DNA of 9,589 bases, from IMG/VR virus record IMGVR_UViG_2563366982_000003; one strand, given 5' to 3'. The DNA comes from a virus (lineage: Duplodnaviria > Heunggongvirae > Uroviricota > Caudoviricetes). A program made the translations under genes and the position numbers. This document shows, one piece after another, positions 1 through 9,589 of this stretch. The notes under the pieces are model-generated. The model was not told where the DNA came from. It was given only the letters and a program-made list of their open reading frames with translations, and did no database searches. Position 1 is the stretch's first letter. Each line of letters begins with the position of its first letter.

Positions 1-131
1 TTCACCCATCGCGTCATTGTGGAAAGGCCGACATCCATAGCGCTGGCTGCATCTGCCACGGTGTAATTCTGGTCAACGACCAGTTGAGCGGATTCGCGTT
101 TAAACTCTGCGCTGAAATTTCTTTTTTTCAT
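1..131 (-). CDS. IS911-like transposase OrfA (InsN-like), N-terminal part, truncated by the window edge
   Basis: ATG at 131-129 (minus strand); translation [43 protein letters not shown]..., in a different frame from the annotated 100..798 ORF tail. Recognised from memory of IS911 orfA. Confidence 0.7.
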
Positions 132-203
132 TATGGCACCTGTGTTGTTCTGAGGTGAGCATATCACCTCTGTTCAGGTGGCCAAATTCAGTAAACCACT
201 TCA
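1..203 (-). mobile_element. IS3-family (IS911-like) insertion sequence, partial: left terminal repeat and 5' part of orfA; element continues beyond the window start
   Basis: Minus-strand sequence from 203 downward reads TGAAGTGGTTTACTGAATTTGGCCACCTGAACAGAGGTGATATGCTCACCTCAGAACAACACAGGTGCCATA-ATG, an IS3-family-type end (TG...) followed about 70 nt later by an ORF beginning [43 protein letters not shown], which I recognise as IS911 OrfA (HTH N-terminus). Boundary at 203 inferred from the TGAAGTGG terminus. Not checked against ISfinder. Confidence 0.75.
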
Positions 204-798
204 CACTGCACAGTGATGCTGTCCGGCGATCAATTATCTGGTGCAATACCACCTGCTCGTTTTTCGTCTCCCGCTGAACGCCTATTTCATCCAGGACCAG
301 CAAATCAACCCCGCAAAGCTCCTGTAAAAATTTTTCCCCGGATTTGCCGTTGTCGTAACTGTCATGCAACACGCTCATGACGTCAGACACGGTGACGATA
401 ATCACGCTGCGCCCCTTCACCATCAGCCGGTTGCCCATCGCCGCTGCAAGGTGATTTTTCCCGGTGCCGGTTTTACCGCTGAACACAAAATTCGTGCACC
501 CGGTCATCAGTTCGTCAGCTATGGATTTGGCCTGGCTCAGCGCGTATTTTTGCCCGTCGTTCTGCACCTGATAATTTGCAAACGAGCATTTGCTGTGCAG
601 AGGCTGGATGCCCGAACGATTCAGGATTTTTTCCACCCGCAACTGGCGATTCTGGCGGTTAATCTCCTCGCTGCGTTTTCGTCCTTCAGCAAGTTGCCAT
701 TCCCGCCACTCCTCCACCGTCCGGTACGGTGGAACCGACCCCTGTGGTGCAAGTCTGCGAATACGTTCAAGAACCCCAACTGCCGCAATGTTTTTCAT
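100..798 (-). CDS. DnaC-like replicative helicase loader (AAA+ ATPase); native reading frame ends near 204, the last ~35 codons (100-203) are IS-derived read-through, so the gene is 3'-truncated by the IS911-like insertion
   Basis: 232-aa ORF with Walker A ([15 protein letters not shown]) and Walker B (DLLVLDEIG) and a DnaC-like layout (...[17 protein letters not shown]...); SD-like GGGGGTG upstream of the ATG at 798; the C-terminal tail [15 protein letters not shown]... is encoded by the IS terminal repeat. DnaC homologs carry about 45 more residues after the DRR(S/T) motif. Confidence 0.75.
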
Positions 799-804
799 GA
801 CACG

Positions 805-1767
805 TCACCCCCTGAATCCCGGCGGTATTTCAGTGTCCGGTTCAGAAATGTGATTCACGCAACGCTGCGCAGGCGAACGCCCCAGGCGGATAACCAGTTC
901 ATCCCATTTTTCCCGGAGTTTTGCCGGACTCATGATGTTTTTTACCCAGAACGAATCCCGCTGGAGACGCCCAAACATTTCACAAATTTGTCTGTGAGTT
1001 CTGCCATCCAGCATCCGCATTGTGCGAACGTCATTGGCCCATGCTGTCCAGTTGGGTTCTTTCGGTCTAGTGATCTCGCCATCATAGCTGGCCGCCTGCT
1101 CGTAAAGACTCACGATTCGTCCCCAGATCCACTGTGCGCACACCAAATCTTCCTGACTTCCCCACTGGCGTTTTTTCGCACTGAACACAACCGCGTCAGG
1201 GTGTCGGGTTAAAAAATCCTGTTCAGCCGTCTGCGGGTCCGGTTGCGAAGCGTCCGGACAAGAAGATCTTTTATCTGACGGATCAGGTTTTAATACTGAC
1301 GGATCGGGGTCAATCATCGCCCCCCTAATCGGCAGTTTTTTATCAACAGTTGATCCATCAAAATTTGACGGGTCAACCGTTGAGGGGTCAATATTTGACG
1401 GGTCAACTGTTAACGGGTCATTTTTTGCCGGGCTAATTTTTCTTTTCGGTTTATATGACTCACGCGCCGCCGCCGCAGCTGCTTCGAGTTTTTCCACATT
1501 AAGCCGATAGATATTGCTTACATTACGCCCACCGACCTTACGCTCTTCCTTCGTCAGCCAGCCCTCTTTCGCCAGTTCTGCAATAGCCGATTTCACTGTG
1601 GATTCACTTCTTGCACCGATCTGACGCCGGATAGTTTCAATGGCAGGCCATGACACACCCTCGTCATTGCTGTAGTCTGCAAGACGGGCCATAACCGCCA
1701 CCCTGGATAAGATCATGCCGGTGAAGGCGCACCCTTCCCAGACAAGACCATGAAGCTTGCTGCTCAT
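805..1767 (-). CDS. Phage replication initiation protein (lambda O-like in function; N-terminal winged-HTH, internal iteron-encoded peptide repeats, C-terminal DnaT/YdaU-like domain)
   Basis: Long minus-strand ORF (track 805..1782, GTG start); I prefer the ATG at 1767, preceded by GGGGG. N-terminus LVWEGCAFTGMILSRVAVMARLADYSNDEGVSWPAIETIRRQIGARSESTVKSAIAELAKEGWL is typical of replication-initiator HTH domains. Internal DPSNIDPSTVDPSNFDGSTVD peptide repeat is encoded by DNA iterons. Stop lies 6 nt upstream of the dnaC-like ATG, the O-then-loader order of lambdoid replication modules. Confidence 0.7.
   Translation of the reverse strand: MSSKLHGLVWEGCAFTGMILSRVAVMARLADYSNDEGVSWPAIETIRRQIGARSESTVKSAIAELAKEGWLTKEERKVGGRNVSNIYRLNVEKLEAAAAAARESYKPKRKISPAKNDPLTVDPSNIDPSTVDPSNFDGSTVDKKLPIRGAMIDPDPSVLKPDPSDKRSSCPDASQPDPQTAEQDFLTRHPDAVVFSAKKRQWGSQEDLVCAQWIWGRIVSLYEQAASYDGEITRPKEPNWTAWANDVRTMRMLDGRTHRQICEMFGRLQRDSFWVKNIMSPAKLREKWDELVIRLGRSPAQRCVNHISEPDTEIPPGFRG
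1350..1439. repeat. Six tandem 15-bp iterons (consensus TTGAcGGGTCAAy-nn) inside the initiator gene: candidate phage origin of replication
   Basis: Plus-strand units: ttgatccatcaaaat / ttgacgggtcaaccg / ttgaggggtcaatat / ttgacgggtcaactg / ttaacgggtcatttt / ttgccgggctaattt (1350-1439). Each unit contains an internal dyad (TTGAC...GTCAA). Placement inside the initiator gene parallels the lambda ori iterons within O. Confidence 0.6.
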
Positions 1768-1789
1768 AAAACCCCCGAACACCGTGCTT

Positions 1790-2215
1790 TTAGTGCATCA
1801 CCACAGCATTCCCTGCCGGGCCGCCGCGATTCATCTGGTCATACAAAACAACCGCTGACGCAACAAAATCATCGACATCCTTCACCAGCCGATCCCTCCG
1901 TTCGACGATCTCACGGTAATATTCAGAACTGTGGCTGCGCATACGGGCCACCAGCAAAGGCGGCATCGCCTTTTCGATCGCCGGTAACAGAGCCTGCATT
2001 TTTTCAACAGCATCAGGGGTGTCTTTATCCAGCCAACGGAAAATTTTCTGGGTATTACGGGCCAGGGCTTCCGGATGGCTGTCGTCATACAGTTCCGGGA
2101 ACGTCATTCCCAGCTCGAAATACGCTTTGGTAATTTTCGCAGCCGGTACTTTTTCGCCGTCCGGATGCGCCCAGACATTCATCGCCATGCGGATGTGTTC
2201 ATGCTTGATTTTCAT
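1790..2215 (-). CDS. ydaT: YdaT-family protein (CII-like regulator / putative toxin family of Rac-type prophages)
   Basis: 141-aa ORF beginning MKIKHEHI..., matching my memory of the YdaT family N-terminus and size (~140 aa); start ATG overlaps the upstream gene stop (ATGA at 2212-2215), implying translational coupling with the ydaS-like gene. Confidence 0.65.
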   Translation of the reverse strand: MKIKHEHIRMAMNVWAHPDGEKVPAAKITKAYFELGMTFPELYDDSHPEALARNTQKIFRWLDKDTPDAVEKMQALLPAIEKAMPPLLVARMRSHSSEYYREIVERRDRLVKDVDDFVASAVVLYDQMNRGGPAGNAVVMH

Positions 2216-2514
2216 GAATCAACTCCATCAGATAAGCATGTACTACAATCACCTTCAGCATGAACTACATGTGTTTGCCCCAAACGAATGCCGCTCGCAT
2301 ACTCAGGCCAAATAAGCTCCCAATCATGGGGTCGTAGCTCCGCCCTACTTACTTGGCCTTCCGTCGCAGATTCGATCATAAGGGCGCGGGTTGGAGATAT
2401 AGCTGTTCGTCCAGACGCCATTTGCGATAAGTAAGATGGCGATACACCAAGTCTGGCCGCGAATTTCTTAGCATCACCAACCCTTAATGATTTAATAAAC
2501 TCTTTTAATGTCAT
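2212..2514 (-). CDS. ydaS: YdaS-like Cro-type HTH DNA-binding protein (Cro analogue of the switch)
   Basis: 100-aa ORF; HTH signature KKFAARLGVSPSYLSQMASGRTAISPTRALMIESATEGQVSRAELRP; SD GAGGAAGG 4-12 nt upstream of the ATG at 2514; divergent from the regulator gene at 2612. Confidence 0.7.
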   Translation of the reverse strand: MTLKEFIKSLRVGDAKKFAARLGVSPSYLSQMASGRTAISPTRALMIESATEGQVSRAELRPHDWELIWPEYASGIRLGQTHVVHAEGDCSTCLSDGVDS

Positions 2515-2611
2515 ACCTTCCTCGGTTTAGTGTTTTTTTGCGAGTTTAGTGTTTAATAAACCATTAAGTCAAGTATTTGCTTGTTTAGTGATTACTAAAG
2601 ATAATTACCAC
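2515..2611. promoter_or_regulatory. Divergent promoter/operator region between ydaS-like (minus) and paaR2-like (plus): repeated heptamers GTTTAGT/GTTTAAT and palindromes, candidate -35/-10 elements for both directions
   Basis: GTTTAGT at 2525-2531, 2544-2550, 2583-2589; GTTTAAT at 2551-2557 with complement AATAAAC at 2555-2561; perfect dyad TTTAGT-GATT-ACTAAA at 2584-2599. Candidate plus-strand promoter: -35 TTGCTT (2577-2582), 17-bp spacer, -10 GATAAT (2600-2605). Candidate minus-strand promoter: -35 TTGACT (complement of 2567-2572), -10 TAAACT (complement of 2543-2548). A further TTTAATAAAC copy lies at 2491-2500, inside the first codons of ydaS. Confidence 0.55.
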
Positions 2612-2983
2612 ATGCAAAAAAAAGAAATTCGCCGTTTACGTCTCAAGGAGTGGTTTAAAGATAAAACTCTGCCACCCAAAGAGAAGAGCTACCTATCTCA
2701 ACTAATGAGTGGGAGAGCCTCGTTTGGAGAAAAGGCTGCCAGAAGAATAGAGCAAACATACGGGATGCCGGAAGGGTATCTGGATGCGGAATACGCAGAA
2801 CAACCGGGGGTTTCTCCACCACATGCAGGGTTAACGTCTAATCAACTGGAATTATTGCAGATTTTTTCAGCCTTCCCTGAGGATGAGCAACGCCAGATAA
2901 TCAGCGAGTTAAAGCAGAAAAAAGAATCAATGGAAGATCTCATAGCGAGATGGATTGCGGCGCAAAAATGCCGCCGCGCCTGA
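2612..2983 (+). CDS. paaR2: HTH (XRE/cI-type) transcriptional regulator of the three-component ParE toxin-antitoxin module; occupies the cI position of the prophage switch (PaaR2-like)
   Basis: 123-aa ORF from ATG 2612 (the track's 2549 start is a GTG lying inside the operator repeats, with no SD); HTH region LSQLMSGRASFGEKAARRIEQTYGMPEGYLD; no peptidase S24 domain; directly upstream of the antitoxin/toxin pair. Symbol from memory of the E. coli O157:H7 paaR2-paaA2-parE2 system; the paralogous paaR1 module cannot be excluded without alignment. Confidence 0.6.
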   Translation: MQKKEIRRLRLKEWFKDKTLPPKEKSYLSQLMSGRASFGEKAARRIEQTYGMPEGYLDAEYAEQPGVSPPHAGLTSNQLELLQIFSAFPEDEQRQIISELKQKKESMEDLIARWIAAQKCRRA

Positions 2984-3003
2984 GTTATAAAACCGGAGGA
3001 AAC

Positions 3004-3195
3004 ATGAATAGAGCCCTTTCACCAATGGTTTCTGAATTTGAAACCATTGAACAAGAAAACAGTTACAACGAATGGCTGCGTGCGAAAGTAGCAACGAGCC
3101 TTGCAGATCCGCGCCCAGCAATTCCCCATGACGAAGTTGAGCGCAGAATGGCAGAACGCTTTGCTAAGATGCGTAAGGAACGGAGCAAGCAGTAA
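3004..3195 (+). CDS. paaA2: Small antitoxin of a ParE-family toxin (PaaA2-like, 63 aa)
   Basis: 63-aa ORF MNRALSPMVSEFETIEQENSYNEWLRAKVATSLADPRPAIPHDEVERRMAERFAKMRKERSKQ from ATG 3004 with SD GGAGGA at 2995-3000; stop TAA at 3193-3195, 1 nt before the toxin ATG. Size and operon position match the PaaA2 antitoxin as I recall it from the literature. Confidence 0.7.
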   Translation: MNRALSPMVSEFETIEQENSYNEWLRAKVATSLADPRPAIPHDEVERRMAERFAKMRKERSKQ

Positions 3196-3196
3196 A

Positions 3197-3475
3197 ATGT
3201 TACCCGTGTTATGGCTTGAAAGCGCAGATACCGACCTAGATGATATAACTAGTTATATTGCTCGTTTCGACATAGATGCGGCTGAACGCTTATGGCAGCG
3301 ATTAAGGGGTTGTGTGCTGCCGTTATCCGAACATCCGTATTTATACCCACCAAGCGACAGAGTACCTGGCTTGCGTGAGATTGTAGCCCACCCTAACTAT
3401 ATAATTCTATACCGCGTAACAACATCAAGCGTTGAAGTAGTAAACGTGATCCACGCAAGACGCCAGTTTCCCTAA
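3197..3475 (+). CDS. parE2: ParE/RelE-superfamily toxin (ParE2-like)
   Basis: 92-aa ORF from ATG 3197: MLPVLWLESADTDLDDITSYIARFDIDAAERLWQRLRGCVLPLSEHPYLYPPSDRVPGLREIVAHPNYIILYRVTTSSVEVVNVIHARRQFP, with the characteristic ParE C-terminal pattern (...YRV...V.V..H.RR..). The track's 3101 start overlaps the antitoxin and is rejected. Confidence 0.8.
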   Translation: MLPVLWLESADTDLDDITSYIARFDIDAAERLWQRLRGCVLPLSEHPYLYPPSDRVPGLREIVAHPNYIILYRVTTSSVEVVNVIHARRQFP

Positions 3476-3559
3476 CTTTCACTACCAATAGAAACATAAC
3501 AACCGCAACGACTTTATCAAAAGCGTTGTGTTTGTTATGCCCCGCGGTTTAGTTTTTAC

Positions 3560-3590
3560 TTGACTTAAGTTTAATGTTTATTAAACTAAA
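3560..3590 (+). promoter_or_regulatory. Candidate repressor-controlled promoter of the dicB-type operon: -35 TTGACT, operator palindrome GTTTAAT-GTTT-ATTAAAC, -10 TAAACT
   Basis: -35 TTGACT 3560-3565; 16-bp spacer; -10 TAAACT 3582-3587. A perfect 7-bp inverted repeat with 4-bp spacer (3569-3586) fills the spacer and -10 and is near-identical to AGTTTAGTGTTTAATAAAC at 2543-2561 in the divergent switch region. The stretch TTGACTTAA-GTTTA..TTAAAC is shared by both loci. Confidence 0.5.
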
Positions 3591-3766
3591 AATACCAACC
3601 CACCCCGCCCCACAGAACGCAGGGAAATACTTCGAGTTACCCGGCAGTGGTCAGGGGTTAAGTAGCCAGCCCGAGGCGTATGAACATGACGGCGGGAACA
3701 CTTTGTATAACAGCGCAGCAGGTTTTTTGTTCCGCTACCCCGGCGTTAAGGGGAAATGAGGTCAAC

Positions 3767-3919
3767 ATGGATACGCTCAATCTTGGCAACAACGAATCTC
3801 TGGTATGCGGTGTGTTCCCTAACCAGGACGGCACCTTCACCGCGATGACGTATACCAAAAGTAAAACGTTTAAAACCGCAGCTGGTGCGCATCGCTGGTT
3901 AGCAAGAAACACTGACTGA
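3767..3919 (+). CDS. ydfA: YdfA-like small prophage protein (first gene of the dicB-type operon)
   Basis: 50-aa ORF from ATG 3767 (MDTLNLGNNESLVCGVFPNQDGTFTAMTYTKSKTFKTAAGAHRWLARNTD) with SD GAGG at 3758-3761; the track's longer 3680 start lacks an SD. Size and position match Qin ydfA as I recall it. Confidence 0.6.
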   Translation: MDTLNLGNNESLVCGVFPNQDGTFTAMTYTKSKTFKTAAGAHRWLARNTD

Positions 3920-3930
3920 TGAGGTTGACG

Positions 3931-4269
3931 ATGGAATTTAAAGATTTACCTCCTTCAATCCAGGAGATTGCAGCACACACACTTCGTCATCGTCTGAACG
4001 AACTTGAATTGGAATCGGTAACAAAAAAAGACACTGATAATATGGCTCGCAATGTGCGCGATGCGTTTACTGGGCTGTTTTCAGATACAGCTTTAAATAT
4101 CCATGGCACAGAGGATACAGCAAAACAATTTGCAGAAAAAGAAGTGGAAGATCCCAGTTCAAAGAGCCAGAAACAGCCAAACAACCATGAAATTAACGAA
4201 CTGCTTCTGGCAACAGGCTTCATAAATATTAACGAATATGAACGCCGTAAAAAAATGTTATCTGATTAA
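3931..4269 (+). CDS. Hypothetical prophage protein of the dicB-type operon (possibly the intact counterpart of Qin ydfB plus ydfC)
   Basis: 112-aa ORF from ATG 3931 (MEFKDLPPSIQEIAAHTLRHRLNELELESV...) with SD GAGG 3921-3924; an alternative ATG at 3919 overlaps the ydfA-like stop. No recognisable domain; acidic/Lys-rich C-terminal half. Confidence 0.5.
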   Translation: MEFKDLPPSIQEIAAHTLRHRLNELELESVTKKDTDNMARNVRDAFTGLFSDTALNIHGTEDTAKQFAEKEVEDPSSKSQKQPNNHEINELLLATGFININEYERRKKMLSD

Positions 4270-4452
4270 TCCATCAAGATATCTTTTTAGCATCAGCGTT
4301 TCTACGTTATTAAAACCATCAGATTTTAACATAGCTTCGATTCGCTGATTTAAATTGCCAACTAACTGTTGATACTGAGTAGATGGAAGCATGTGTACCA
4401 GCTCCTTGAGAACACAATAACATGCACCAAGTTTTAACTCCTGCTCTGACAT
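4258..4452 (-). CDS. Candidate small protein gene (64 aa) antisense to the dicB-operon transcript, in the gap between the ydfB/C-like gene and DicF
   Basis: ATG at 4452-4450 preceded by a consensus SD (GGAGGA-taaa-ATG); translation MSEQELKLGACYCVLKELVHMLPSTQYQQLVGNLNQRIEAMLKSDGFNNVETLMLKRYLDGLIR; AT-rich codon usage (TTA, AGA, CTT). No plus-strand ORF of comparable quality exists between 4270 and 4790. No homolog recognised. Confidence 0.35.
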   Translation of the reverse strand: MSEQELKLGACYCVLKELVHMLPSTQYQQLVGNLNQRIEAMLKSDGFNNVETLMLKRYLDGLIR

Positions 4453-4791
4453 TTTATCCTCCATTGAGGTTACTGGTTGAGAATGGAAACCTCTCGTGAC
4501 AGCGTGTGGTCGTGCGCCGGACACGGATAAGAATCCGGCACTGACAGTTTACTGAAAGGATATTTCCCTGAAAAGTCAGACCATAACGCGAAAGCGTACG
4601 GCGAGGTAGCTGGTTCATAGATAGCCTGTCGTTAAATTTTCGTCGACCGTGCGCTTCCGGTTGTGGCAATCCGCGAAATGGCGCGGCGGTAAGTATGGCG
4701 GGGTTATTCCTTCCCCCGTTGAGGACACCGGGTTGTCAGGTTGACCATACGCTTAAGTGACAACCCCGCTGCAACGCCCTCTGTTATCAAT

Positions 4792-4848
4792 TTTCTGGTG
4801 ACGTTTGGCGGTATCAGTTTTACTCCGTGACTGCTCTGCCGCCCTTTT
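4792..4848 (+). ncRNA. dicF: DicF small regulatory RNA (ftsZ-targeting sRNA of Qin-type prophages), including its 3' stem and U-tract
   Basis: Sequence TTTCTGGTGACGTTTGGCGGTATCAGTTTTACTCCGTGACTGCTCUGCCGCCC + TTTTT matches my memory of the 53-nt DicF RNA; GGCGG (4807-4811) / CCGCC (4839-4843) pairing followed by a T-run gives a rho-independent 3' end; lies 180 nt upstream of the dicB ATG as in the Qin dicB operon. Exact 5' end not determinable from sequence. Confidence 0.75.
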
Positions 4849-5027
4849 TAAAGTGAATTTTGTGATGCGGTGAATGCGGCTGAGCGCACGCGGAACAGTT
4901 AAAGCAGTAAGGCGGTCTTTTACTGGCGTAACGAGCATCAACTAACCCGGCGTTAATTGTTAACTGGTTAACGTCACCTGGAGGCACCAGGCACTGCATC
5001 ACAAAATTCATTGTTGAGGACGCGATA

Positions 5028-5216
5028 ATGGAAACGTTATTACCAAACGTTAATACGTCTGAAGGTTGTTTTGATATTGGTGTTCTGCTCAGTAACCGGG
5101 AGTTTACTGAAGATGCCATTAATATGAGGAAATATGAGCCTTATCTGCTCAATGATAATTCCATACTTTCCCGAATTGCTCTTCTTGAACTTGGTATTTT
5201 CGGAGAGCGTCAATGA
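5028..5216 (+). CDS. dicB: Cell-division inhibitor DicB
   Basis: 62-aa ORF METLLPNVNTSEGCFDIGVLLSNREFTEDAINMRKYEPYLLNDNSILSRIALLELGIFGERQ; matches DicB in length and N-terminal sequence (M-TLLPNVNTSEGCF...) as recalled; SD GAGGA 5016-5020; follows DicF. Confidence 0.85.
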   Translation: METLLPNVNTSEGCFDIGVLLSNREFTEDAINMRKYEPYLLNDNSILSRIALLELGIFGERQ

Positions 5217-5401
5217 CTTCAGCATTTGCACTGATGATGACGGTTTTTCTTATAACGGGTGAATCACAGAATGTGATTACCGGAATTTATGCCAGTAAAG
5301 AATCCTGCCTCCAGGCAAGAGACGAGCAAAAAATTTCTGGTGAATGCCTCCCGGTAAAAAAAGTATCGCTGTACCTGAATAACGAAACACCGGCTGGATA
5401 A
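5213..5401 (+). CDS. ydfD: YdfD-like small membrane protein (Qin-type prophage lysis/toxicity protein)
   Basis: 62-aa ORF with start ATG overlapping the dicB stop (ATGA at 5213-5216); hydrophobic N-terminal segment FALMMTVFLITG, consistent with a single transmembrane helix; position matches ydfD after dicB. Confidence 0.7.
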   Translation: MTSAFALMMTVFLITGESQNVITGIYASKESCLQARDEQKISGECLPVKKVSLYLNNETPAG

Positions 5402-5493
5402 CCCTCCAGCCATATTAACACCATACCAACGGATTAAAAATGCCAGCAATGGCAGGGATTTGTTCACCCTTAAATCTGTAATGAGGTTTATCA

Positions 5494-6055
5494 ATGAGCA
5501 CTGATAAAGAAGAATTTGCGCTATATTGCGAAGCAAAAAATGACAAAGTCAGAAAACGTCTGGGAATTAAAGGTGGTTTTTACTGGACTACAGCAAAAAA
5601 ATTATCTGTTGCCATCTCCCGCTGCATTACCGCAATGGATGACAACGATTATGATGAAGACGACTTTAAAAAACCCGTTCGCGTCCATTTACCCGTTGTG
5701 AATGACCTTCCACCTGAAGGCGTGTTTGATACCGAATTCTGCAACCGATACGAAAAAGGCGGGGAAGATGGCATTACAATGGTATTTATCGCGCCCTCTC
5801 CCTCCGTGCAGGAGAAACCAGCCAGTACTGACAATACCAACGTCAACGGCGAAGACATGACGGAGATTGAGGAGAATATGCTCCTGCCGGTTTCTGGTCA
5901 GGAGCTGCCCATTCGCTGGCTTGCGCAACACAGCAGCGAAAAACCAGTAACGCACGTTGCACGGGAAGAACTTCAGGCATTACATATAGCACGGGCGGAA
6001 GAACTGCCGGCTGTTACTGCCCTGGCCATTTCTCACAAAACAAAGCTGCTCGACC
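5494..6055 (+). pseudogene. RecE-like (exodeoxyribonuclease VIII family) prophage exonuclease gene, N-terminal fragment, interrupted by an IS21-family insertion
   Basis: ORF from ATG 5494 (SD GAGG 5482-5485); the track ORF 5494..6105 reads 50 nt into the IS terminal repeat before a stop. Deleting 6056-8193 (IS plus one repeat copy) rejoins this frame exactly to the frame open from 8193 to the window end (...HKTKLLD|[24 protein letters not shown]...). Assignment to the RecE family is from recalled similarity of the N-terminal region and the synteny after dicB/ydfD. Confidence 0.6.
6049..6055. repeat. Left copy of the 7-bp direct repeat (CTCGACC) flanking the IS21-family element: putative target-site duplication
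   Basis: CTCGACC at 6049-6055 immediately before the IS terminus TGTCA; identical heptamer at 8187-8193 immediately after the other terminus. Confidence 0.55.
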
Positions 6056-6115
6056 TGTCAACGCCACGATGTTTGACCGTTATTTGCCATTTTCATGCCC
6101 GCTAAGATACTTTCG

Positions 6116-8085
<1,970 letters not shown>

Positions 8086-8186
8086 GTTGATGTCCTTTCT
8101 GGTGTGAGAACCTTAAGGAAACAACATGTTGGGTGGAGCGGACAATCCAAATGGTGAATTACCGTCTTATATCACTGGCGCTGACA

Positions 8187-8193
8187 CTCGACC
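8187..8193. repeat. Right copy of the 7-bp direct repeat (CTCGACC) flanking the IS21-family element
   Basis: See left copy; only removal of the IS plus exactly 7 bp restores the exonuclease reading frame. Confidence 0.55.
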
Positions 8194-9589
8194 CGCTGGA
8201 GATTCGCGACCTTCACAAACTGGTACGCGACACTGACAAAGTTTTCCCTAATCCCGGTAATTCAGACCTGGGACTGATAACTGCTTTTTTCGAGGCATAC
8301 CTGGACGCTGATTACACTGATCGGGGTCTGCTGACAAAAGAGTGGATGAAAGGAAATCGTGTTTCGCGTATCACCCGTACGGCTTCCGGTGCAAATGCCG
8401 GTGGCGGGAACAAAACCGATCGCAATCCGAATTTAGTACACACCTTCGATGCGCTGGATGTGGAGATTGCAGCAGCCACACTTCCGATGGATTTTAATAT
8501 TTATGAAATTCCGGGCAGCGTTTATCGTCGCGCAAAAGAAATCGTCCTGAAAAAAGAAAGTCCGTTCAGGGAATGGTCCGCAGCACTTCGCGCAACCCCT
8601 GGTATCCTGGACTATTCCCGCGCAGCTATTTTTGCACTTATCCGAAGCGCCCACCCTGAGTTTTATCACTACCCGGGGCGCCTTCAGGGGTATATCAATG
8701 CCAACCTGACAGAAACTGATCACGAGAATCCCACAGCTGAAACGCTCATGGCTGCCCGGCATACACCGGAAAAAGATATCCTGGAAGAAATTAACGGCGG
8801 ACTGGCTGCTGAGTGCAAAACAGAAGAAGAAAAAAATGATGAAGATAACCCGCAACCATCTGGCGCAATGGCAGATGAACAGGCAACGGCTGAAACAATG
8901 GCAGCGGATACAGTTGAACATCATCAGGACCCGCAGCCGCTGGATGACAAGTCACAGGTAAAAGTTACCGCTGACGAAGTAAACAAAATTATGCAGGCAG
9001 CCAATATCAGCCAGCCTGACGCCGATAAGTTGCTTGCTGCCTCTCGCGGAGAATTTGTTGCAGGGATTAGCGACCCGAATGATCCGAAATGGGTAAAGGG
9101 GATTGAAACCCGCGATTCTGTAAACCAGAACCAGCAAGAATCGGAACAGAACGACCAGAAAGCGGAACAAAACAGCCCAAATGCGTTACAAAACGAGCCA
9201 GAAACGAAACAACCTGAACCAGTAGTGCAACAGGAACCGGAAAAGATCTGCACCGCCTGCGGTCAGACCGGCGGCGGCAACTGCCCTGATTGTGGCGCGG
9301 TGATGGGCGACGCAACATACCAGGAAACATTCGATGAAGAGAATCAGGTTGAAGTTCAGGAAAATGATCCGAAGGAAATGGAAGGCGCTGAACATCCACA
9401 CAAGGAGAATGCTGGCAGCGCTCAGGATCACGCCAGCGATAGTGAAACTGGCGAGACGGCAGATCCCTTAATTACGGTGAACGGTCATCATGTTATCACA
9501 TCCACCAGCAGGACGTGTGACCATCTAATGATCGACCTTGAAACCATGGGAAAAAATCCTGATGCCCCGATCATCTCAATAGGTGCAAT
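8187..9589 (+). pseudogene. RecE-like prophage exonuclease gene, C-terminal continuation after the IS21 insertion (open to the window end): Q/E-rich low-complexity linker, CxxC-x10-CxxC zinc-ribbon motif, start of a DEDD (DnaQ-like) 3'-5' exonuclease motif
   Basis: One frame is stop-free from 8091 to 9589 and is absent from the ORF track because it has no stop in the window. Translation ...[51 protein letters not shown]...; acidic/Gln-rich segment about 9100-9240; [16 protein letters not shown] at 9249-9296; [10 protein letters not shown] (Exo I-like D-x-E) at 9522-9551. All minus-strand ORFs listed for 8433-9431 are antisense to this frame. Confidence 0.6.

Follow-up and report, generated by a model that had tools for sequence, protein, structure and literature searches.

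An IS21-family insertion splits a prophage exonuclease gene whose intact product joins a RecE-type N-terminal region to a predicted DEDDh nuclease domain

The stretch of DNA analysed here (the window, 9,589 nucleotides, IMG/VR virus record IMGVR_UViG_2563366982_000003) ends in a region, positions 8187-9589, that is very probably the 3' part of an early-left-operon gene of a lambdoid prophage, split by an insertion sequence (IS), the intact product of which is a mosaic of a RecE-type N-terminal region and a DEDDh exonuclease domain. The analysis established the architecture of this product, its catalytic residues, its fold and the junction at which its nuclease was swapped, together with the genomic context and the disruption of the gene by the IS; the features found in the window are collected in Table 1. 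The protein and its two-domain arrangement are already represented in RefSeq, Pfam and PHROGs, and this is an ordinary, known and very common prophage protein.

When compared with the genome of E. coli ATCC 25922 (sequence L001), the window falls into two matching blocks, 203-6055 and 8187-9589, which have 7 bp of the reference in common. Identity to L001 is 99.98% in the window up to 6055, and positions 8187-9589 are 100% identical to L001:10001-11403, inside the CDS that encodes WP_000102132.1. Between the two blocks lies an element that carries everything by which the IS21 family is recognized, namely istA (encoding the DDE transposase), istB (encoding the AAA+ helper), inverted repeats and a target duplication. 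Its terminal inverted repeats, TGTCAACGCC and TGTCAGCGCC, were read directly at the ends of the element, and the RefSeq name for the sequence at 6056-8186 is IS21-like element. Taken together, the two ATCC 25922 blocks and the IS21 genes, repeats and duplication indicate that an IS21-family insertion splits the exonuclease gene. Position 8187 is the first base past the right inverted repeat of the IS and thus constitutes the right-hand insertion junction. The same position was also considered as the start of an independent gene, a possibility that was rejected given that the sequence is internal to a longer CDS into which the IS has inserted. There is no start codon at 8187.

From 8187 onward, frame 3 has no stop codon up to the window end (467 codons), and it is also open upstream of 8187, into the IS21-family element. 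An in-frame ATG is present at 8151, inside the end of the IS, which could permit a truncated product and counts against certain inactivation. On the other side of the element, the listed ORF 5494-6105 corresponds to the 5' fragment of the exonuclease gene running on into the IS. Antisense ORFs within 8312-9431 were taken as spurious, given the strong protein homology on the plus strand. The insertion has most likely inactivated the split exonuclease gene. The junction between IS and gene was detected in none of 5426 complete E. coli genomes, and therefore it seems that sequenced strains lack this particular insertion or carry it only rarely.

Table 1. Features of the split exonuclease gene and of the inserted element, in window coordinates
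Feature	Position	Strand	Basis or remark
Exonuclease gene, 5' fragment (aa 1-187)	5494-6055	+	Pfam Exonuc_VIII, residues 57-187, E 2.9e-33
Target-site duplication CTCGACC, left copy, 7 bp	6049-6055		ATCC 25922 match blocks overlap by 7 bp; read directly
IS21-family insertion sequence, 2131 bp	6056-8186	-	IS21 Pfam domains, RefSeq naming, ends read directly
istB	6116-6916	-	266-aa ORF; Pfam IstB_IS21, E 2.5e-90
istA	6913-8085	-	390-aa ORF; Pfam rve and Mu-transposase C-terminal domains
Target-site duplication CTCGACC, right copy, 7 bp	8187-8193		Read directly
Exonuclease gene, 3' fragment (aa 186-652 of 812), running off the window end	8187-9589	+	ATCC 25922 identity
Conserved RecE-type region, aa 186-385	8187-8786	+	Aligns with K-12 RecE 174-~370; near-identical over aa 186-260
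Acidic low-complexity stretch, aa 386-442	8787-8957	+	9 E, 8 A and 7 D in 57 residues
Conserved helical segment, aa 443-496	8958-9119	+	Common to RecE; predicted helices, pLDDT 60-69
Q/E/N/P-rich linker, aa 497-538	9120-9245	+	10 Q, 8 E, 6 N and 5 P in 42 residues
Cys4 motif C540-x2-C543-x7-C551-x2-C554, candidate zinc knuckle	9249-9293	+	aa 540-554
Tail of the Cys4 module, aa 555-570	9294-9341	+	Nearly invariant in homologue alignment; kept in K-12 RecE
Acidic linker, aa 571-615	9342-9476	+	RecE homology stops at ~9472-9476
Start of DexA/Rv2179c-like DEDDh module, aa 616-652	9477-9589	+	Exo I D635/E637 at 9534-9542

In ATCC 25922 the intact gene is a single CDS annotated 'exonuclease' and encoding 812 aa (WP_000102132.1), which is preceded by dicB and a DUF1482 gene and followed directly by xis and int. 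In the induced E. coli phage vB_EcoS-640R1 xis and int also follow the homologous gene, which is annotated exodeoxyribonuclease VIII and has a 100% identical DEDD domain, and no recT is annotated in the early region of either this phage or the ATCC 25922 prophage. A Pfam search with the full-length protein identified Exonuc_VIII (PF06630) at residues 57-189 (E 2.7e-33) and a complete Rv2179c-like DEDDh domain (PF16473) at residues 631-802 (E 1.3e-67), the latter matching its family HMM end to end (profile positions 2-177 of 177) with 227.4 bits (cutoff 27). The distant representatives P0125 and P0128 likewise carry both Pfam domains. Unlike RecE itself, the protein does not reach the cutoff of the NCBIfam RecE equivalog NF007259 (907.2 bits against 1269), positions 1-603 of this 877-position profile being matched by residues 1-615. 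Several existing PHROGs families cover the 812-aa protein, including phrog_2082, a profile of 823 positions that is matched to its end by residues 439-812.

The C-terminal domain contains all motifs of a DEDDh nuclease, Exo I D-x-E, Exo II D and Exo III H-x4-D, and none of the five residues concerned (D635, E637, D735, H785 and D790) varies when the domain is aligned with T4 DexA and stand-alone homologues. The established polarity of DEDD enzymes is 3'-5', and a metal-dependent 3'-5' exonuclease activity can safely be predicted for this domain. Only D635 and E637 lie within the window, and the domain could be observed in full only in the intact copy, which belongs to another genome. The fragment encoded in the window, when scored alone, reaches 26.1 bits against the Rv2179c-like cutoff of 27, with fragment residues 446-467 matched, a score below the cutoff because only 22 residues of the domain are inside the window.

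A first AlphaFold run, with an alignment of 120 near-identical homologues, gave a mean pLDDT of 34 and was discarded, and a second run, for which the alignment was made more diverse, yielded pLDDT values of 85-96 for the DEDDh domain, below 50 for the linkers and about 50 for the Cys4 motif. Searching the PDB with the domain model, Foldseek returned T4 DexA (8KEN/8KEL) as the best match (E 1.7e-12), ahead of RNase T and Orn/REXO2, with a probability of 1.00 in every case. DexA was also the sole match when the PDB was searched by sequence or by profile (E 1.7e-6 with a single sequence and 2.8e-17 with a profile). T4 DexA (exonuclease A), the structure of which was solved by Kang et al. (NAR 2025, PMC12153337; 8KEL, 8KEN), is therefore, among proteins of known structure, the one closest to the C-terminal domain in sequence as well as in fold. 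The two have all five DEDDh catalytic residues in common, but their identity is only about 26%, and DexA is a stand-alone protein of 227 aa with extra loops, whereas the 812-aa protein has a RecE-type extension of 615 aa.

The top Pfam family of this domain bears the name 'Rv2179c-like 3'-5' exoribonuclease', and its founding member, unlike the 812-aa fusion, is a small mycobacterial protein that stands alone and carries the name of an RNA exonuclease. The family name makes RNA a possible substrate and is a point against a DNA-directed enzyme. It is conceivable that the fusion is an RNA-directed nuclease, as reported for Rv2179c, serving for example to trim host or phage RNA, which would agree with RNase T and oligoribonuclease being its next structural neighbours and with the name '3'-5' exoribonuclease' given to homologues in many sources. 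However, the nearest solved relative in sequence and fold is a DNA exonuclease, at E <= 0.01 a profile search of the PDB retrieved no DEDD chain besides DexA (Rv2179c was absent), and the RecE-type front end comes from a protein that processes DNA ends; on balance we consider an RNA-directed role unlikely.

As far as residue 615 the protein is related to RecE of the Rac prophage of E. coli K-12 (b1350), which is likewise located in the early-left region of a lambdoid prophage. In BLASTP comparisons residues 58-615 align with RecE 50-592 at 58% identity and no similarity to K-12 RecE was detected past residue 615, and with blastn the DNA homology with K-12 recE stops at nucleotide 1841 of the gene, around window position 9472. 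The two proteins have in common Exonuc_VIII, an SRGEF...DPNDPKW segment, the Q/E linker, which is 14 residues longer here than its K-12 RecE counterpart, the Cys4 motif, which in RecE reads CNACGQTGGDNCPDC, and the acidic linker. They differ in the C-terminal nuclease, since Pfam assigns to K-12 RecE, besides Exonuc_VIII, a PDDEXK-like DUF3799 domain (PF12684) at 615-850, whereas the intact 812-aa protein has no Pfam match to a PD-(D/E)XK domain and carries the DEDDh domain in its place. They also differ in that recT does not come after the gene. Because the Cys4 motif and the Q/E linker both fall inside the RecE homology, these two elements are native to RecE and only the nuclease was exchanged; the swap lies at about residue 615, with DEDDh replacing PD-(D/E)XK.

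Concerning RecE itself, a 2023 review cites a crystal structure for the nuclease domain and states that the N-terminal domain has no known function (PMC11611040). That the RecE linker and Cys4 region persist beside a wholly different nuclease suggests that the RecE-type N-terminal region has a role independent of the type of nuclease to which it is joined. In fusions from other genera the region of aa 186-385 is 24-63% identical. The acidic stretch that follows (aa 386-442) has pLDDT values below 50 in both AlphaFold models, the helical segment of aa 443-496 also occurs in proteins with unrelated N-termini, such as P0072, and the Q/E linker is predicted by AlphaFold to be disordered.

A preliminary description, made from the window alone, had read this fragment as an unusual string composed of a Q/E-rich linker, a zinc-ribbon-like CxxC-x10-CxxC and a DEDD-type exonuclease motif at the window edge, and had raised the possibility of a RecE-type N-terminal region combined with a DEDD exonuclease that continues beyond the window. 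The linker, the paired CxxC and the Exo I motif are all encoded in frame 3, where every string quoted was found, and the motif at the edge is the D635/E637 pair of a domain that has 22 residues inside the window and is complete in the ATCC 25922 copy. The proposed combination was borne out both by the full-length domain search, with its downstream DEDD domain, and by the alignment with Rac RecE. Calling the string unusual was not justified, since the linker and Cys4 motif are also found in K-12 RecE and the DEDD form outnumbers RecE itself in E. coli (see below). As for the cysteines, the two CxxC pairs are real but are separated by seven residues rather than ten, and the zinc-ribbon-like label is unproven: no curated zinc-ribbon Pfam family matches the region, for which the top match is YhfH (E 0.41), and structure prediction gave no confident knuckle fold, with a pLDDT of ~48-53 in both AlphaFold models. 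Their expected conservation among orthologs held within Escherichia and failed in other enterobacterial genera.

Of 120 close homologues of the Escherichia clade, 119 have the complete set of four cysteines, even though the intervening residues vary. K-12 RecE has the set too, as do the copies from E. albertii and E. ruysiae and the representatives P0132 and P0188, which have other C-termini. None of the 21 RecE-N::DEDD fusions from other enterobacterial genera has these cysteines, and several of these fusions contain other short motifs, such as GGGVFSIEGL or NVQMEE, in this region instead. It is quite possible, though not probable, that the motif is a lineage-specific insert in a linker, devoid of zinc binding or any structural role, as its absence from every fusion beyond Escherichia, the low AlphaFold confidence and the lack of a curated family would suggest. 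Against this, the Cys4 motif and its tail are among the stretches best conserved with respect to RecE in proteins whose overall identity is only 58%, the cysteines have been kept while neighbouring positions changed, and short strands are predicted on either side of the two knuckles in both AlphaFold models. Moreover, when the 10 cysteines of the protein were placed at random, a Cys4-type pattern arose in only 13 of 200,000 trials, and thus a chance origin of the cluster is unlikely. An unrelated DEDD protein (P0370) has a Cys4 knuckle of its own, a different one located in its N-terminal extension, which also argues against a mere insert. The Cys4 motif may therefore be regarded as a conserved module of the Escherichia lineage and a candidate zinc binder.

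Of 5426 complete E. coli genomes, 4069 contain DNA of the DEDD module, with as many as 7 copies per genome, and 1736 contain the PD-(D/E)XK domain of RecE, which recT nearly always follows, so that in E. coli the DEDD form is commoner than RecE itself. A search at the level of representatives retrieved 11,811 relatives, and among the best-scoring matches listed most are stand-alone proteins of ~180-200 aa. Genomic context was surveyed at 80 species-level loci, mostly from Enterobacterales, with 6-kb flanks; 25 of these loci encode RecE-N fusions (641-828 aa) and 49 have stand-alone genes, and in about 33 a tyrosine integrase gene lies no more than ~1 kb downstream. No RecT-family match (by tblastn) or RecE-nuclease match was found within 6 kb at any of the 80 loci, in an annealase search that covered the RecT family.

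These observations bear on whether the protein could be a functional equivalent of RecE, that is, the exonuclease half of a two-component recombinase whose annealase is encoded elsewhere. Such a function could be imagined for a protein that occupies the position of RecE in the prophage map, has the RecE-type N-terminal 615 residues and is annotated as exonuclease or exodeoxyribonuclease VIII in RefSeq and phage records. We nevertheless regard it as very improbable, considering that no RecT-family gene accompanies the DEDD genes either at the surveyed loci or in the annotated early regions of ATCC 25922 and vB_EcoS-640R1, that the PD-(D/E)XK domain is missing, and that a 3'-5' polarity would leave no 3' tail on which an annealase could load. 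With no annealase gene and a polarity that does not yield the 3' tails required by RecT, the DEDDh fusion is probably not a recombinase of the RecET type.

Our literature search found no relevant account linking RecE, DEDD nucleases and prophages, or Rv2179c and RecE, and a paper on Gifsy-1 proved to be unrelated. The study of T4 DexA lists WP_000102132.1 among bacterial DexA homologues in its Table S3 and mentions neither its prophage context nor the RecE fusion (PMC12153337). The same study describes EcD ('HREX'), a stand-alone DexA homologue of E. coli that degrades 5hmC DNA and, when plasmid-borne, protects against T4 (PMC12153337). With the forward-primer sequence given in that paper we found an EcD-like protein of 189 aa, 38% identical to the DEDDh domain, which is probably EcD itself. 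The 3' end of its gene differs by one base from the printed reverse primer, and the printed reverse-primer sequence had no match in viral contigs. EcD, with ~189 aa, belongs to the same Pfam family as the domain of the 812-aa protein and has no N-terminal extension.

By analogy, the prophage protein might act as a defence nuclease of the EcD/HREX type, selectively degrading the 5hmC DNA of incoming T-even phages and so protecting the lysogen, a proposal in line with the family and fold held in common with DexA, the listing in Table S3, the protection conferred by EcD and the resemblance of the EcD-like protein to the DEDDh domain. The residues that the DexA study ties to 5hmC recognition, however, are not clearly kept. 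At the position of DexA W152, which is Trp in DexA, in the EcD-like protein and in most stand-alone homologues, the 812-aa protein has Tyr (in RYYNDRD), and D169 has no clear counterpart, its position being aligned with Ala or Lys, and an Asp following two residues later, in a loop where the alignment is unreliable. At the position of DexA D90, which is involved in tetramer formation, Asp707 is retained, whereas EcD has Ala78, and the position of S87 is occupied by Pro. In addition, the gene is placed at the end of the early-left operon beside xis-int, and genes so placed would normally be silent in lysogens, and no PADLOC model covers the full protein, which produced just a weak match to a generic DEDDh model. 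EcD-type specificity of the fusion is thus not supported by the residues compared, and we find a role in defence against T-even phages improbable.

We favour a DNA-trimming enzyme, for which we infer the activity, the substrate and the biological role. D635, E637, D735 and D790 would hold two Mg2+ ions, with H785 as the putative general base, and nucleotides would be taken off a free 3' end. A long and largely disordered tether would connect this nuclease with the binding target of the RecE-type front end. By analogy with T4 DexA, trimming or degradation of DNA during phage development, or in conflicts between phages, seems the more likely role for such an enzyme.

A broader proposal is that the ~615 RecE-type residues are a reusable chassis that accepts alternative nuclease heads, PD-(D/E)XK accompanied by RecT, DEDDh without an annealase and possibly others, with the DEDDh protein, the majority form in E. 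coli, in a role of its own and the Escherichia-specific Cys4 motif as a real zinc module that helps to bind the target. We hold this proposal as a whole to be possible but rather doubtful. If it were true, the DEDDh form may degrade competitor or host DNA in the manner of DexA, or may clear 3'-ended products, DNA or RNA, that host defences generate.

The value of these observations lies mainly in annotation and little in discovery. Genes of E. coli prophages that are labelled 'exodeoxyribonuclease VIII' or 'RecE' are more often the DEDDh chimera than true RecE, and since this chimera has no RecT partner and is expected to act with the opposite polarity, support for recombination of the RecET type should not be assumed from the label.

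The 7-bp target duplication CTCGACC flanks the IS21-family element that interrupts the E. coli prophage exonuclease gene, and the junction between element and gene was found in none of the 5426 complete E. coli genomes of the collection. An ATG lying within the IS end (window 8151-8186) is in frame with the 3' fragment of the exonuclease gene, the reading continuing LDPLEIR..., and a GGAG is found about 12 nt upstream of this codon. Judging from the sequence, a shortened IS-exonuclease fusion (aa 186-812) could be translated from the IS-end ATG, if the region is transcribed.

Other prophage genes accompany the interrupted gene. The ORF at 3101-3475, in the toxin-antitoxin region, has a ParE_toxin match in Pfam, and the YdaS-like and YdaT-like genes adjoin the replication genes, the same placing as in Rac-type prophages. 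The window matches the prophage of E. coli ATCC 25922 except for positions 1-202, which have no match there and appear to mark a mosaic boundary within a DnaC/IstB-like gene (ORF 100-798, minus strand).

Features of the prophage window
Feature	Window position	Strand	Context	Annotation
relB/relE-type toxin-antitoxin pair	3004-3475		prophage early region	annotated at matching ATCC 25922 locus
YdaS-like and YdaT-like genes	1790-2514	minus		Pfam YdaS_toxin, YdaT_toxin
IS21-family element, 2131 bp (istA, istB)	6056-8186		interrupts exonuclease gene	

A 99% identical copy of the exonuclease gene is carried by a contig binned in a Veillonella parvula MAG (L005, JAGZPX010000007.1), most likely as a result of binning contamination.

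Among homologous proteins, the Cys4 motif is missing from fusions of the RecE-type N-terminal region to the DEDD domain in other genera (P0128, P0131, P0137, P0138 and P0152; related loci L009-L071). In the corresponding linker, several fusions from other genera have two short conserved motifs in common, GGGVFSIEGL(M/V) and NVQMEE, which might be protein-binding peptides. A different Cys4 knuckle, CPECFGDDECETCDGSG, lies in an unrelated N-terminal extension on the DEDD domain of the 294-aa protein P0370, apparently a further case, independent of the first, in which a Cys4 motif has been combined with the DEDD nuclease family. Two RecE-type proteins (P0188 and P0132) keep the Cys4 module and have C-termini that are neither DEDD nor PDDEXK, Exonuc_VIII being their only Pfam match; they may represent additional variants of the head, or their genes may have decayed. 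In P0163 (703 aa), the RecE sequence stops inside the Cys4 motif and is followed by different sequence, which looks like a deletion joining recE to a downstream gene.

Stand-alone genes resembling EcD, the E. coli DexA homologue reported as an anti-T4 nuclease (Kang et al. 2025, PMC12153337), were found at locus L092 (7842-8411) and at five similar IMG/VR loci. This 189-aa gene begins with the published EcD forward-primer sequence, has Ala78, and at its 3' end shows a one-base difference from the reverse primer given in the supplement to that paper.

Of the 5426 complete E. coli genomes, 4069 carry the DEDD exonuclease module, in up to seven copies, and 1736 carry the canonical RecE PD-(D/E)XK domain; many RecE-like annotations are therefore DEDD chimeras.
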